Counted from the first letter of the stretch, positions 11,817 through 20,230 are shown. The stretch: DNA of 64,000 nucleotides from Escherichia coli (GCA_025336725.1 GCA_025336725.1_3647.1); one strand, 5' to 3'. Notes: generated from the sequence alone by a model not told the origin. Numbers and translations are program-made.

Positions 11817-13001
11817 TCAAGCTTTAGCCAAAATGGCGCTAAACTCTTCACCAAACTCTTTTACAATCTTCATCAGGTTTGGGTACGCTTTGATCAGTTG
11901 AGCAACGATCTTGTCACGACCTTTACCGATAAGCAAGGCATTTCCTAAGGCATTAGGTTTCATCATCGCCATAAAGACTGAGAATACAAAGTCTCGGTTC
12001 TCATCCTTGAAATTTTCCCAAAGGAAATCAAGGAAGTTTGCCACACAGCTGACGAGATCTTCGTCGGAGATACTTGCATTTTCCATCATGTTACGAATAG
12101 CGATACAACCTTCAGACCCCAGAATCCACAAGATGTCTGGCTGCTTAGGGCCTACATATTCTTTGCAGCCTCCTGCCATAATCCGACCGATTTCTGGCAA
12201 GTTTCGTTTCTTGGTGTGGTAGGTCCAAATTTCTACCGCTGCAGTGTGACCAATGGCACCTTGTAGAAGAACACGGGCCATAGCGTCAGAAATAATACCG
12301 CTGTCAAAATCGTGCAGGATGTCAGATGCAGCAACCCAAGAGCGCGGTGTAGCAAAAGATGGACAATTAATCTCAGCCATGGCCTCATAATTATCGATGG
12401 CTGATGGGACTCTTTTCAGATATCCAATTACCGAGGAGTGCACCCCATTAAGGAATGCATAGTCCTCAATAAACACCTCTGCACTGCTTGTAACTTCTAC
12501 AATGATAAAGCGGTTAGCTAGAGGAGCTTCGAGTGCCGAAAGAACAGCACCGTCTGTAGCACGGTTACCTGCAGCTACAAAAACAGAGCCTTTAGGAAAT
12601 GCATAGGTGCCGCACTTGTGGTCGAGCATAATTTGCATTGCAACCTTCTGCAGGTAGTTATCTGCATGAGTAAGCTCGTCTAGAAAGATAATTCCGCTCC
12701 AGTCCGGATCTGCAGGCCAAAATTCTGGAATTGCAAACACTGTACGTGTAGTTCCATCTGCCTCCACAGGGATAGGCAGTCCAGATAAGTCAGCAGGATC
12801 TTTATCTGACAACCGCACGTCAACCAGGTTGTCATCTCGCTCACCGAACATATTATCAGCAATCTGCTTCATCACCTGGCTCTTCCCCACGCCCATCGGT
12901 CCTAAAATCAGGACAGATCGGTTATGACGCTGGGCAAATTGAATAATAGCTGGCAACTCGCGGACAGTGATTTGACCACTTTCGAATACGTTTCTCGACA
13001 T
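11817..13001 (-). CDS. MoxR-like AAA+ ATPase (AAA_5 type)
   Basis: 394 aa; Walker A GPMGVGKS, Walker B IIFLDEL, sensor-like VAAGN. Confidence 0.7.
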   Translation of the reverse strand: MSRNVFESGQITVRELPAIIQFAQRHNRSVLILGPMGVGKSQVMKQIADNMFGERDDNLVDVRLSDKDPADLSGLPIPVEADGTTRTVFAIPEFWPADPDWSGIIFLDELTHADNYLQKVAMQIMLDHKCGTYAFPKGSVFVAAGNRATDGAVLSALEAPLANRFIIVEVTSSAEVFIEDYAFLNGVHSSVIGYLKRVPSAIDNYEAMAEINCPSFATPRSWVAASDILHDFDSGIISDAMARVLLQGAIGHTAAVEIWTYHTKKRNLPEIGRIMAGGCKEYVGPKQPDILWILGSEGCIAIRNMMENASISDEDLVSCVANFLDFLWENFKDENRDFVFSVFMAMMKPNALGNALLIGKGRDKIVAQLIKAYPNLMKIVKEFGEEFSAILAKA

Positions 13002-15567: not shown

Positions 15568-15580
15568 TACGTTTTTGAGG

Positions 15581-15609
15581 TTGACATCTGTCGAGGCACT
15601 TGATAAGAT
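15581..15609 (+). promoter_or_regulatory. sigma70-like promoter, rightward
   Basis: TTGACA (15581-15586), 17-nt spacer, TAAGAT (15604-15609); back to back with the leftward promoter. Confidence 0.55.
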
Positions 15610-15640
15610 TTCTTCACCTACAAAGCACAAGAGACAACTC

Positions 15641-16630
15641 ATGAATCTTGAAAAATATTATACACCAGAAGAGTTAGAGCGCCTGCTCAAAAAATATAGA
15701 CGTAAACAGAATAATGCACGGAAACGAGATATAGAGTTCAACCTGTCATGGGAAGAATATCTCCTATTTGGTAAAAAACTTTTAGGAGAGGGAGTATGCG
15801 ACTATACCCTTATACCTTTCGACATGCACACAGATGAAAACGGACTGGGAAATCCTTTCTACCCATCTCTAGAGCGGATAGATGATGAAGGTCCTTATGC
15901 GGTTGATAACTGTTGTGTGGTAGGATTGAGATGCAACTCTCTAAAGGACTGTCTGGTAGATAAAAAGACCGCAGTCTTGATTAAAGACAAAACTGATCGA
16001 AAAATTGTCCAGCAGATGATGCTCCACCTGAGCGAAGAGCGTATGGAGAAATTGAAAGGTGATTACACTTTTGAAGATTTCATCTTGCAATATGGAACGG
16101 AAGAGGATAAACTAGCACTCTTTGACGAAGAATGGGAGGAAGATATGTCACCAATGCAGGATTTTAAAAACTTCATGGCTAATCGTGGAGCCAACAAGCA
16201 CATTTCTGACATTGTAAACGAGCCTGCAGTAGAGGAGATTGAAGAGATGACGCAACAGGCTTACGAAGAGGAAAAAGAGCCTCAAGGGGTCGAAGAAGAG
16301 CTTACAGAAGAGGTTCCTGCACTGCCTGACGATGTTGAGATTGCCAAAGCTTACACTTTCTATTGCCAGACGTTCTACGATGCAGGTATGAAAGTTGATC
16401 TGTCATTCAGCCAGTTTAAGAGCACATACATTCGAAAATGTTGTGCTTTAACTGGTGAACGTCTCGGTGCCGGACTTAAACCCCTATTAGTTACCGACTG
16501 GAACAAAGGTTTCACCAAAGGTAACTTCATGGTAGTATCTCCAATCATGGAGAAGGCTATGACAGACCTTATGAAGACCACTCGCATGACAATGACCGAG
16601 TTGGCTGGTATTTTCAAGCACGTTAAATAA
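15641..16630 (+). CDS. hypothetical acidic protein with two degenerate HNH-like halves
   Basis: Start moved to ATG 15641, downstream of promoter; central E/D-rich linker; ..SLERIDDEGPYAVDNCCVVGLRCNSLKD.. and ..CCALTGERLG..LVTDWNKGFTKGNFMVV.. Confidence 0.45.
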   Translation: MNLEKYYTPEELERLLKKYRRKQNNARKRDIEFNLSWEEYLLFGKKLLGEGVCDYTLIPFDMHTDENGLGNPFYPSLERIDDEGPYAVDNCCVVGLRCNSLKDCLVDKKTAVLIKDKTDRKIVQQMMLHLSEERMEKLKGDYTFEDFILQYGTEEDKLALFDEEWEEDMSPMQDFKNFMANRGANKHISDIVNEPAVEEIEEMTQQAYEEEKEPQGVEEELTEEVPALPDDVEIAKAYTFYCQTFYDAGMKVDLSFSQFKSTYIRKCCALTGERLGAGLKPLLVTDWNKGFTKGNFMVVSPIMEKAMTDLMKTTRMTMTELAGIFKHVK

Positions 16631-16642
16631 TGACAGGGGCCA

Positions 16643-18124
16643 ATGGCCCCTTCTGGAGTTTTAATGGATAGCAGAAGTTCAGAAATCATTACCGCACAAA
16701 AAGATGATGCCTTGCGAATGCTGCAGGCCGCTCGCATGTACCTTCTTGAAAAGCTGCCGTTTTATGGCACACTGTTGTCAGGGTTGCAGTTCGTAGAAAA
16801 CCACACATGGTGCTCCACTATGGCAACAGACCATAAACGCATCTACTACAGCCCTGAGTTCATTATGGGGTTGGCAGATGAGCGTAAAACCATTCTTAAA
16901 GCATCTCTGACTGACAAGCAGTTTGAGATGGCTGAGGTTTTCTATTCCCCAAAATCTGTGAAAGAGGTGGCCTTCCTTCTGTCACATGAGGTGGGGCATA
17001 TTATCTGTGATCATCTGGTCCGTGGTAAAAGCTTTGAGCCGGAACTGTTCAATATTGCTTGTGATCACGTTATCAACACAGGTCTTGTGGTTGACTTTAG
17101 CAAGCCTCCTTGTGTTTTCTTCCCGAAGGGGAAAAGCACTGAGTTCGTAAAAGGTAAGCCTTTTGGCTTCTTAGCTAATTGCTACTGCGACATGAAGTTT
17201 CATGGATGGATTGCTGAGAACGTCTATGCAGTTCTTGATAAACAAAGAGATCAGAATAGCGGTAAAAGTAAGAACGGTAAAGGCGAGAACTTCCAAGGAG
17301 ATAAACGACAAACCGATGATCACATGAGCGGGAACGGTGGCACCAGTGATGATCTTGGAAAGGCTATGGGGTATGATCAGCCGCAACCAGTAATCAGTCA
17401 ATCTGATAAAGATCAGGCCATGCAGGACTCTGGTGACATGTTGGAAGCAGCAATGCAAGCTTCAGGAGGTCGTTGCCCTGAGGCGGTGCGCGAGTTTGTC
17501 AAAAACAGAGGCAAGCCTGTAATCAACTATATAGATATTATTAAGCAACGTATGTTGTCTAAACGAAAGGCCGAGCTAACCTACAGAAAACCTGGTCGCC
17601 GATCTGGGTCTTTGACCACCACAATGCGAAAAGTTGGAGCTATAAACAAGAATCAACACATTATTGTTCCTGGTCGTAATCCGGAAAACACCATAGATAT
17701 TGTAGTGGCTTTGGACGTTTCTGGGTCGATCTCGCAAAGAACTTTAAAGAAAATGTTCAATGAGATCACCGGGTTGTGCAATTTGTATAAAGAGTTTAAG
17801 GTTACGATGTTCTGTTGGTCAACCGAGGTTGGAGAGGTTAAAGTATACACTCGCGGTAACATCGATGAGATGATTAACTATGAGGTCCACTCAACATGGG
17901 GCACAACAGCCGCCTGCGTGTTCGAGTATCTGGATGCTAACATACCGAATGCAAAAGATGTCATCGTCCTTACCGACCTCTACTTTGAGCACAACTTTGA
18001 ACAAAAGGCTGTTGACAACAAGTGGAAAAAGTACGATACTTTATGGGTTCTCACCGAAGGGTATAATAAAAATTATATCCCGAGCTTTGGGAAAACTGTG
18101 GAATTAATCGAGTATGCTAAGTAA
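16643..18124 (+). CDS. putative metallopeptidase / von Willebrand factor A domain protein
   Basis: 493 aa; HExxH motif (LLSHEVGHIICDH) in N-terminal half; VWA MIDAS-like DxSGS (IVVALDVSGSIS) in C-terminal half. Confidence 0.6.
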   Translation: MAPSGVLMDSRSSEIITAQKDDALRMLQAARMYLLEKLPFYGTLLSGLQFVENHTWCSTMATDHKRIYYSPEFIMGLADERKTILKASLTDKQFEMAEVFYSPKSVKEVAFLLSHEVGHIICDHLVRGKSFEPELFNIACDHVINTGLVVDFSKPPCVFFPKGKSTEFVKGKPFGFLANCYCDMKFHGWIAENVYAVLDKQRDQNSGKSKNGKGENFQGDKRQTDDHMSGNGGTSDDLGKAMGYDQPQPVISQSDKDQAMQDSGDMLEAAMQASGGRCPEAVREFVKNRGKPVINYIDIIKQRMLSKRKAELTYRKPGRRSGSLTTTMRKVGAINKNQHIIVPGRNPENTIDIVVALDVSGSISQRTLKKMFNEITGLCNLYKEFKVTMFCWSTEVGEVKVYTRGNIDEMINYEVHSTWGTTAACVFEYLDANIPNAKDVIVLTDLYFEHNFEQKAVDNKWKKYDTLWVLTEGYNKNYIPSFGKTVELIEYAK

Positions 18125-18130
18125 GAGAGG

Positions 18131-18397
18131 ATGGTATTTATGGCAACAGAGGTAGTAATTAAAGCTGAACGCCCAGTTAAAAAAGCTATCAACACGTTCC
18201 CTGTAGGAACCATTGTGAGCATGATTACAGAGTCAGGCCGTGTATCTACACTGCTAATCGTGAAATCTGCATGCTCATCTTGTGTGTGGGCATACGATCT
18301 TGACGAGAAAGAACTGAAAGATTTTGTCGGGGAGCTGAAAGCAACAGAGCTTGACGCTCGTATCGAAGTATTTGGTGAAACTATGGAGGAAGAGTAA
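18131..18397 (+). CDS. small hypothetical protein, paralogue 1 of 3
   Basis: 88 aa; shares F-x-x-G-[ET]-[IV]-[VL] and downstream Cys pattern with the next two ORFs. Confidence 0.45.
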   Translation: MVFMATEVVIKAERPVKKAINTFPVGTIVSMITESGRVSTLLIVKSACSSCVWAYDLDEKELKDFVGELKATELDARIEVFGETMEEE

Positions 18398-18660
18398 TGA
18401 CTACAAAAATCACCATTGCAGAACCAAAAGCTAACACGCAACCTATCGAAAAGTTTAAATGCGGTGAGGTGGTAACATTCACACCAGATAATGAAGATGC
18501 CAAGATTTTTGCCATGGTCACAGCCGAGTGGATGTGTGACAATACCACACAGGTGCTGCGTTTTGACACCTATCTTACAGATGAAATCAGGAACGACAAG
18601 ATCGTGACTGGTGTGGATACTGAGATTATTTTCTACAAGAGCTTTTTAGAGGGTTTCTGA
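18397..18660 (+). CDS. small hypothetical protein, paralogue 2 of 3
   Basis: 87 aa; start overlaps upstream stop. Confidence 0.45.
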   Translation: MTTKITIAEPKANTQPIEKFKCGEVVTFTPDNEDAKIFAMVTAEWMCDNTTQVLRFDTYLTDEIRNDKIVTGVDTEIIFYKSFLEGF

Positions 18661-18661
18661 T

Positions 18662-18895
18662 ATGGCAAAAATTCGTAAATTATCCAGCAATCAGGTTGTG
18701 AAAGACTTTGAATCTGGGGAGATCTTGTATGTCCGTGATGCAGATGATGAATGTGAAGATCTTGTTATGCTGGTAGGGCACGCTGAAGACGGATGCATCC
18801 AGGCTGTTTTTCTTGAAACAGCGATGGTGCACTGGATAGAGCTGGACCTGAAAGCACGAAAACCTAAAGCAGAAATCATTATTTACGAAGATTAA
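18662..18895 (+). CDS. small hypothetical protein, paralogue 3 of 3
   Basis: 77 aa; FESGEILYV... pattern. Confidence 0.45.
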   Translation: MAKIRKLSSNQVVKDFESGEILYVRDADDECEDLVMLVGHAEDGCIQAVFLETAMVHWIELDLKARKPKAEIIIYED

Positions 18896-18911
18896 CAAGA
18901 AGGAGAGAGCC

Positions 18912-19361
18912 GTGTTGAGCAAACGTGAATGCGACAGCATTAGCCTGAATTCTTATAAGAAACAATGGTTTGGTGTAGAAGTTTGCCGACTACGGCTGGG
19001 CTCCTACTTGAACTTCGTCCATTATGAGAGCGACAGTCGTATCGTTTCTTATGAAGTGTTCTACACTAAGAATACATTCGAGCTGAGACGTAAGGTGGAT
19101 GGCGGGAGATCTACCGCCCAGAATAATTGGGAAACTATTCTGCCTCCAGATGTTATAGGAAGTCCCCTGAATGTATCTGAAGATGAAAATCTTATGGTTC
19201 ATGCTATGATGGGACTTGACAGCTTAGAGCTGGCGATCTATGATATGTCCATCGAAGCAGTTAAGTTGGACTACATCGAAAACACTTTAGAGGAAGGTAT
19301 CAAGAAGTTTCTCGGTGAGAAATTGAAAGCCCACTTTCATAAGGAGCTATATCTGTTATGA
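18912..19361 (+). CDS. hypothetical protein
   Basis: 149 aa ORF. Confidence 0.45.
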   Translation: MLSKRECDSISLNSYKKQWFGVEVCRLRLGSYLNFVHYESDSRIVSYEVFYTKNTFELRRKVDGGRSTAQNNWETILPPDVIGSPLNVSEDENLMVHAMMGLDSLELAIYDMSIEAVKLDYIENTLEEGIKKFLGEKLKAHFHKELYLL

Positions 19362-19603
19362 AGACCCGTAAAGAACGTAACAAGATTTTACCTGGCGCTC
19401 TCGAACACATGATGAAGTGCAGATCTATCTGGCACTCTGCCAAGGAGGGCCAGCATGTGGTCGTGGTTAGTGATAATGTCAACCCGTTCGGTGATTATGT
19501 CACCATGATGACTCCATACATCCGCGACGGTGTTGTGGAAGTGGTTCCTTATAACGGTCTGCATGAGAGGCATTTTGAGAGCACTTTGCTAGTGGAGCTA
19601 TAA
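19358..19603 (+). CDS. hypothetical protein
   Basis: 81 aa ORF, 4-nt overlap with upstream ORF. Confidence 0.45.
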   Translation: MKTRKERNKILPGALEHMMKCRSIWHSAKEGQHVVVVSDNVNPFGDYVTMMTPYIRDGVVEVVPYNGLHERHFESTLLVEL

Positions 19604-19605
19604 TT

Positions 19606-20088
19606 ATGGCGGTCAATGTGGCTTACAACACAGGAAAGCTTGACAGAGACATTGGGTGTCTTGTCCTTTCAGATACAGAGGAGTATTGGGGTTATGGGTT
19701 GCTGTCAGACCCACACCCGAGCAACCTTGTATCAACGGTGCTCTATCGCTACGACCCTGTACCAACGGTGCACGACAAAGATATTCACGACCTTCGGATC
19801 AAGTGTCTGGAAGATCTTCTGAACAATGGCTGCAACGATCTGCGGGTAGCCAAGGAGAAGCTTACAAACATTCACAAAGAGGAAGTGATGAGCACCCTCA
19901 GTAAGAGGTCAGTGCACAAAAAGATGATGTTAAACTTTGCGATGGGTATCTACATGGATGGGTATAAGGGAGGGGATCCGATCCTCAAGCTTCGCTGCCC
20001 AACACTGTGGGAAAGAGTGGTTGACAGTAAAGACAGTACTGCCCTGCTAGAGAACTCCACACTGCAGGTTGGATTTGGCGGTATGTAG
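19606..20088 (+). CDS. hypothetical protein
   Basis: 160 aa ORF. Confidence 0.45.
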   Translation: MAVNVAYNTGKLDRDIGCLVLSDTEEYWGYGLLSDPHPSNLVSTVLYRYDPVPTVHDKDIHDLRIKCLEDLLNNGCNDLRVAKEKLTNIHKEEVMSTLSKRSVHKKMMLNFAMGIYMDGYKGGDPILKLRCPTLWERVVDSKDSTALLENSTLQVGFGGM

Positions 20089-20230
20089 ACGGATACCCTC
20101 TGTGGGCATGTGGGCCTGGGGAATTTGTTGACAGACCTAGCGCGGTAGTGGATTTGCTATTGCAGTTTGAATAAAAGGTGAGTTATAAAGCATTCATACA
20201 CCTATCAACAATACAACAAGAGAGACTGAG

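Follow-up and report, generated by a model that had tools for sequence, protein, structure and literature searches.

The locus and its surroundings

Three small open reading frames lie side by side on the plus strand of the 64-kb stretch of DNA analysed here, which as a whole is called the window. ORF1 (18140..18397, 85 aa), ORF2 (18397..18660, 87 aa) and ORF3 (18662..18895, 77 aa) are the counterparts of gp014, gp015 and gp016 of phage rV5. They are members 1, 2 and 3 of the family described below; ORF1 occupies a hypervariable position, termed slot 1, and ORF3 is the most divergent member. A first-pass annotation had reported three consecutive, coupled small genes at this place. This was borne out. 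The frames are adjacent and all on the plus strand (18131/18140-18397, 18397-18660 and 18662-18895), the stop codon of ORF1 overlaps the start of ORF2 (TAATG), the stop codon of ORF2 is a single nucleotide away from the start of ORF3 (TGAtATG), and each frame is preceded by a Shine-Dalgarno sequence. ORF1 likely starts at the ATG at 18140 (MATEVV..., 85 aa) rather than at 18131, because a Shine-Dalgarno sequence, GAGAGG at 18125-18130, is located 9 nt upstream of this ATG, all ORF1 orthologues and paralogues begin with MAT or MTT, and most ORF1 orthologue clusters in the databases are 83-85 aa long.

The source phage is a Vequintavirus, i.e. an rV5/FV3-like E. coli myovirus. More than 110 Vequintavirus genomes, i.e. 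those of rV5, FV3 and their relatives, share 93-98% identity with it over the 5 kb surrounding the array; in deposited records the orthologues of gp014-gp016 are almost uniformly labelled hypothetical proteins. Sixteen deposited 'Campylobacter phage' records (MG0656xx; for 15 of them the host is given as C. jejuni) are about 93% identical to the E. coli Vequintaviruses at the locus, and their C. jejuni host attribution looks doubtful.

A consensus scan identified a sigma70-type promoter-like site on the plus strand at 15581..15609 (TTGACA-17-TAAGAT with an extended -10 TG). It is probably the counterpart of promoter P11, which the rV5 record annotates upstream of gp011 at the head of unit 11-26. 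Transcription unit 11-26 was defined in the rV5 genome paper, which also proposed gp11 as an Srd-like anti-sigma protein; ORFs 14-16 and their paralogy are not mentioned there (PMC3606486), and in the literature otherwise we found no study of gp014-016. The gp011 homologue (15575..16630, plus strand) is the first gene of the operon. It matches PHROG families described as Srd anti-sigma and sigma70-decoy, and its true start is probably downstream of the listed TTG. The gp012 homologue follows (16643..18124, plus strand), lies between the Srd-like gene and the array, and abuts the latter on its 5' side. It encodes a putative metallopeptidase with a DUF2201_N domain (PF13203, 5e-28) plus a VWA-like domain (PF09967, 3e-11). 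Its MoxR-type AAA+ partner gene is on the minus strand at 11817-13001; the AAA/MoxR matches are weak, and the homologue in a deposited record is labelled MoxR ATPase. Downstream, the array is bounded by the gp017 homologue (18912..19361, plus strand), a gene which is kept in array-free phages. We assign the array to the sigma70-driven unit 11-26, in which the DUF2201/VWA gene precedes it and gp017 follows. From the promoter predictions, the unit is probably transcribed early by the host polymerase.

Some of the deposited annotation at the locus deserves comment. Unlike in the window, where an intact ORF of 493 aa occupies 16643-18124, the DUF2201/VWA gene of the rV5 reference (NC_011041; L003 1757-3218) is split into gp012 and gp013 by a gap of 1 nt; this is probably a frameshift or a sequencing error in the reference. 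Public labels for the gp011 and gp012 homologues are 'HNH endonuclease' or 'anti-sigma factor', and for gp017 'tail protein'; they match PHROG family descriptions. A Pfam search of the gp017 homologue returned no tail-related match.

The three frames are conserved genes

Compared with rV5, ORF1 carries 16 synonymous and 0 non-synonymous differences, and ORF2 carries 26 and 0 (dS ~0.78). ORF2 is 94-100% conserved across 118 phage records. The dN/dS ratio of ORF3 is 0.05-0.16; in most comparisons ORF2 and ORF3 have ratios of ~0-0.06, and few genes at the locus are more conserved than these two. For the neighbouring gp012 the ratio is 0.035. These substitution patterns mark ORF1-ORF3 as real protein-coding genes under strong purifying selection. 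At the gathering threshold Rfam had no family match in the whole 64-kb window, hence no RNA element was found in the region.

The three proteins are distant paralogues

The motif F-x-x-G-[ET]-[IV]-[VL], said by the first-pass annotation to be common to all three, occurs in the 127,996 six-frame codons of the window three times only, once per ORF. It begins at residue 20 in ORF1, 20 in ORF2 and 16 in ORF3, i.e. at equivalent positions. A family relationship is not apparent at the level of simple comparisons. Pairwise BLASTP among ORF1, ORF2 and ORF3 yielded no significant similarity, no DNA-level repeats between them were found, and PHROGs sorts them into three separate families of unknown function, each with a full-length match (ORF1 into phrog_10698, 6e-48; ORF2 into phrog_12861, 9e-62; ORF3 into phrog_12046, 2e-54). 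The orthologue sets of all three are very shallow. Additional depth came from phage A6-1, which at slot 1 carries two other genes, A and B. By alignment these are unambiguous paralogues (BLASTP 1e-12 between them); B compared with ORF2 or with ORF3 by BLASTP again gave nothing significant.

HMMs were then compared with the sequences, using 20,000 composition-preserving shuffles as the null. The ORF1-clade HMM, consisting of ORF1 enlarged with the A/B paralogues, matched ORF2 with 15.2 bits (p=1e-6; 0/20,000 shuffles) and ORF3 with 7.5 bits (25/20,000 shuffles), in collinear alignments that cover nearly the whole length of the proteins. The HMMs of ORF2 and ORF3 matched each other with p ~1e-3; the ORF3 HMM against ORF1 was not significant. 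When the 668 six-frame segments of the window were ranked, the best non-self matches of the ORF1-clade HMM were ORF2 and then ORF3, those of the ORF2 HMM were ORF3 and then ORF1, and that of the ORF3 HMM was ORF2. Profile-profile comparison by hhalign with the shallow family alignments gave P values of 7.7e-5, 0.003 and 0.038. The last is the direct comparison of ORF2 with ORF3, which is marginal; thus, their link is mostly transitive. After addition of A, B and the outgroup protein P0037 (see below) the match to the ORF2 family reached P=2e-6 (probability 89%, 40 columns) and that to the ORF3 family P=1.2e-5 (probability 81%, 68 columns). The ORF2 alignment spanned 75 columns with the first profile and 40 with the enriched one; the alignments of both families are collinear. 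The proposed similarity of the three proteins is therefore significant on formal alignment by family HMMs, by an outgroup sequence and by profile-profile comparison; pairwise BLASTP alone fails to detect it.

A single-copy outgroup

A superfamily profile from which A and B had been left out was run against 1.84 billion representative proteins. Only 11 matches were obtained, among them the B-type (5e-11), the A-type (3e-6) and a new protein of 83 aa, P0037 (2.6e-7). The gene for P0037 is present once on a divergent metagenomic phage contig of 124 kb (L012), in the syntenic slot. The gene is directly downstream of the DUF2201 gene and is followed by homologues of gp017 (46% identity), gp018 and gp019. 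P0037 matched ORF1 with p=8e-11, ORF3 with 11.5 bits over 65 residues (0/20,000 shuffles) and ORF2 with 9.4-9.6 bits (5/20,000 shuffles). Among the 668 window segments exactly these three ranked at the top (ORF1 27.9, ORF3 11.5 and ORF2 9.4 bits; the next segment scored 4.1). The profile, outgroup and hhalign matches together thus identify ORF1, ORF2 and ORF3 as true, ancient and highly diverged tandem paralogues specific to rV5-like phages.

Two observations were made in passing. A 2353-aa high-GC repeat protein (P0038) matched profile positions 13-69 in seven repeats with a whole-library E value of 2e-6. The repeats also resemble AMP-binding C-terminal-like units, and P0038 was rejected as a family member: the match is via a repeated beta-hairpin-like segment and is probably a motif-level coincidence. 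Contig L012 carries a TnpB / IS605 OrfB-like gene (Cas12f1-like_TNB) at 1119-2258, at the divergent promoter region between the genes in the fucosyltransferase and the Srd-like positions.

Copy number and alleles at slot 1

The number of family genes at the locus varies among relatives. There is no copy in Seunavirus GAP31, Mydovirus KB57, UPEC06 and Certrevirus KaOmega (L004-L007), where the DUF2201 gene is directly followed by the next downstream gene (gp017-like in GAP31 and KB57). One copy is present in the divergent contig with P0037, three in the source phage, rV5 and YP-6, and four in about 44 of 118 Vequintavirus records, including A6-1, and also in L015-L017. No other family member was found among the six-frame segments of the window or at the loci of other Vequintavirinae genera. 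The first-pass annotation had spoken of a tandem triplication. In the light of the homology statistics, the predicted five-strand layout common to the models (see below) and the series of 0, 1, 3 and 4 copies at the locus this holds in a modified form, as an ancient and highly diverged expansion in situ.

The four-copy records were evident in tblastn, where ORF1 had matches at ~40% identity only, and at two places. In A6-1, slot 1 holds the two 87-aa genes A and B, each ~40% identical to ORF1, and near-identical ORF2 and ORF3 follow. The window aligns with A6-1 at 92-93% over 16122-18151 and 18385-20130; in between, from 18151 to 18385, the 233-bp body of ORF1 is swapped in A6-1 for 503 bp with A and B. 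In a third haplotype, that of L015-L017, the slot is taken by A' and B', which are 56% and 66% identical to A and B, respectively; ORF2 (97%) and ORF3 (92%) come next. These comparisons show slot 1 as an allelic cassette whose variants have diverged deeply (ORF1, A+B and A'+B', 35-66% identical), whereas ORF2 and ORF3 align as nearly invariant genes.

The stretch of the window from 18393 to 19084, which covers ORF2, ORF3 and the 5' end of gp017, is 88% identical to L015:3754-4444, with an ORF2-ORF3 dS of 0.5-0.7. In the gp012 gene beside it in L015, identity falls to 75% and the synonymous sites are saturated. This difference suggests that a segment of about 700 bp with ORF2 and ORF3 was recently exchanged between lineages by recombination. 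In another divergent lineage solo ORF1-like or ORF2-like genes are found at a distance of at least ~2 kb from the DUF2201 gene. Amid or beside these solo genes is a conserved Cys-rich ORFan of 142 aa without a Pfam match (L008:3172-3600 and L009:3558-3986); in L009 a second, unrelated 142-aa gene is located just upstream of it.

Predicted fold and physical properties

Structures of ORF1 and ORF3 were modelled with AF2, each from its own family alignment only. Confidence was moderate (pLDDT 61 for ORF1 and 66-66.5 for ORF3). Both models have the same order and spacing of five strands after a short turn at the F-x-x-G motif, and the first four strands occupy aligned columns. Foldseek searches of the PDB with either model returned only weak matches (E>=0.03, TM 0.4-0.6). 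Nearly all were SH3-like small barrels. The matches comprise Tudor, extended Tudor, PWWP, Agenet and KOW domains, a designed SH3 barrel, the BrxR WYL domain and the translocation-signal domain of TraI; several PDB entries were common to both searches. In BFVD the ORF3 model matched proteins of phage nomo (87 aa) and Pr121LW (84 aa). They are possibly the neighbouring paralogues, but neither match is counted as evidence.

The family is acidic throughout (pI 4.2-5.0). Its barrel has a net charge of -6 to -11 and stands behind a short neutral-to-basic N-terminal tail; nothing in the family members is suggestive of secretion or membrane-insertion signals. We therefore predict, with moderate confidence, that each protein of about 80 aa is a soluble, acidic, five-stranded small beta-barrel of the SH3/Tudor-like type. 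A downstream Cys-containing segment had initially been proposed as a second common feature besides the motif. This was correct in part. A Cys just before strand 3 is present in ORF1, B and ORF3; in ORF2 it is three columns off, and A, P0014 and P0037 lack it. In the alignment the Cys segment is only partly conserved and not family-defining.

Pfam, NCBIfam and PDB sequence searches of the family members gave no informative match. Several known small-barrel families were tried individually and rejected. Bacterial SH3_3 (PF08239) was suggested by a multi-repeat match to P0040, yet hhalign against seven SH3_3 repeats aligned only 24 columns with a probability of 25%, and none of 16 members had an SH3_3 Pfam match at E<=10. 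Homology to the CarD/Mfd RID failed similarly: hhalign against the PDB-verified residues 1-62 of Mtb CarD covered 7 columns at a probability of 0.6%, and the PDB profile search did not return the CarD RID. Membership in the Sm/Hfq-like proteins was rejected as well, because at E<=10 none of the 16 members matched LSM or Hfq; KOW and CarD_TRCF were equally without Pfam matches in this set.

Proposed function and alternatives

Taken together, we consider it probable that the locus is an array of ancient paralogues, probably small barrels, for which binding to partner proteins is proposed. As a best guess, held with low confidence, the family proteins would stoichiometrically bind proteins of the host, or possibly of the phage, during takeover or counter-defence. 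The proposal is based on four properties: the proteins are small, acidic and probably cytoplasmic, they are encoded in a probably early unit, the family is genus-restricted with a variable copy number, and the first slot swaps alleles. It also fits that the array shares its sigma70-driven operon with the Srd-like gene, which it follows at a distance of two genes. The paralogues would have diverged to different targets, such that the slot-1 alleles would track a polymorphic target and ORF2 and ORF3 would bind conserved ones. Homology to known takeover or anti-defence proteins was not found in the PHROGs, Pfam and NCBIfam annotations. Further, arms-race genes are not usually as extremely conserved as ORF2 and ORF3, and the pattern does not indicate a simple, fast-evolving arms race.

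A more specific version, which we regard as rather unlikely, is that the proteins form a new class of Tudor/SH3-like phage inhibitors, with slot-1 specificity variants maintained by balancing selection and recombination next to invariant ORF2 and ORF3. The slot-1 variants would then neutralise a polymorphic E. coli immunity factor or a surface-independent restriction factor, and ORF2 and ORF3 would inactivate host proteins that are themselves conserved. If this were true, the locus would be a compact modular cassette for counter-defence or takeover which helps to set the strain range of rV5-like therapeutic phages.

Other explanations were considered. The ORFs might be three unrelated ORFans which resemble each other only in a short strand motif near the N-terminus and in a beta-rich composition, either by coincidence or because they converged on a common small-barrel fold. 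The failure of pairwise BLASTP, the three PHROGs and the non-significant comparison of the ORF3 HMM with ORF1 are in line with this, as is the occurrence of F-x-x-G-[DET]-x-V in unrelated SH3-like domains (SH3_3 repeats, CarD). However, the alignments are collinear and for ORF3 (68 columns) near full length, the empirical p values range from below 5e-5 to 1e-3, and an independent outgroup places exactly these ORFs at the top of 668 segments. Moreover, the locus has clear paralogues in A and B and a single copy at the syntenic slot, and the motif is unique within the window. An origin from unrelated ORFans is thus largely refuted and in our estimate highly improbable.

The position of the genes raises a different question, namely whether the proteins are adaptors, substrates or regulators of the DUF2201/VWA-MoxR AAA+ system, for example acidic ligands for the MIDAS site of the VWA domain. 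VWA domains commonly bind acidic ligands via MIDAS sites, the family proteins are acidic, and the DUF2201 gene is separated from the array, and likewise from the single copy of L012, by 12-16 nt within one operon. Yet there are DUF2201 genes without the family in Seunavirus, Mydovirus, Certrevirus, UPEC06 and numerous further phages; in UPEC06 and KaOmega a MoxR is annotated beside it. That so many phages have this gene pair and no family member weakens such a role, and so do the solo ORF1-like and ORF2-like genes at ~2 kb or more from the DUF2201 gene and the swapping of slot-1 alleles beside a conserved gp012. We consider it decidedly unlikely. A role as nucleic-acid- or RNA-polymerase-binding regulators of the Sm/Hfq-, KOW- or CarD/Mfd-RID-like kind, which would act with the Srd-like protein to re-program transcription or RNA metabolism, is to be judged as very unlikely. 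Here, the argument is built on the acidity of the proteins and on the negative tests for CarD, Sm and KOW: a barrel net charge of -6 to -11 is unfavourable for nucleic acid, only 7 columns of the CarD RID were aligned by hhalign (probability 0.6%), no LSM, Hfq, KOW or CarD_TRCF match emerged for the 16 members at E<=10, and PDB sequence relatives were not found. These points outweigh, in our view, that the fold matches include KOW, PWWP-ssDNA and WYL domains, that an Srd-like gene is in the same operon and that the first-strand motif resembles the CarD sequence F-K-V-G-D-x-V-V.

Significance

The family is new, i.e. absent from Pfam, split three ways in PHROGs and unnoted in the rV5 paper (PMC3606486). 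For annotation, three 'hypothetical proteins' and two to four more types in relatives become one superfamily with a probable fold. A diverged family of small accessory genes is as such an ordinary feature of a large lytic phage. To our knowledge, most non-structural genes of rV5-like phages have no known function. They are in wide use as components of cocktails for the biocontrol and treatment of E. coli O157 and further pathotypes. The series with 0, 1, 3 and 4 copies and the swappable slot-1 alleles constitute a natural design for experiments. Should the proteins prove to be inhibitors of host factors, the known anti-defence and takeover proteins would gain a new fold family; otherwise, the locus is an ordinary case of an old tandem duplication in a phage accessory region.

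Comparison with known systems

The proteins are best compared with Tudor/SH3-like barrels. These are the best, though weak, Foldseek matches of both models; a five-strand barrel of ~60 residues with a short turn before it is predicted here as well, and the first strand resembles that of SH3_3 repeats. Unlike them, the family is without Pfam membership and consists of stand-alone, acidic, phage-encoded proteins, and neither a Tudor-type aromatic cage nor an SH3b W/GW motif is evident in the family alignment. With the CarD/Mfd RID they would have in common a small Tudor-like barrel, here a predicted one, which opens with F-K-x-G-[DE]-x-V, and a transcription-related neighbourhood with an Srd-like gene would fit; however, the formal profile test fails (0.6%, 7 columns) and there is no Pfam or PDB sequence match. 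PHROGs treats phrog_10698, phrog_12861 and phrog_12046 as unrelated, whereas here they are united in one superfamily together with the A, B, A', B' and P0037 types.

At the level of the genes, the array is slightly reminiscent of 'gene accordions', the tandem amplification of counter-defence genes such as tifA in T4 (PMC9391042). In both cases small accessory genes are arranged in tandem on the same strand, and the copy number varies among close relatives (0/1/3/4 here). Accordion copies are recent and near-identical, whereas the paralogues here are 18-40% identical, have no residual DNA similarity and are each under purifying selection. The array therefore appears to be old and sub- or neo-functionalised, and not a dosage amplification.
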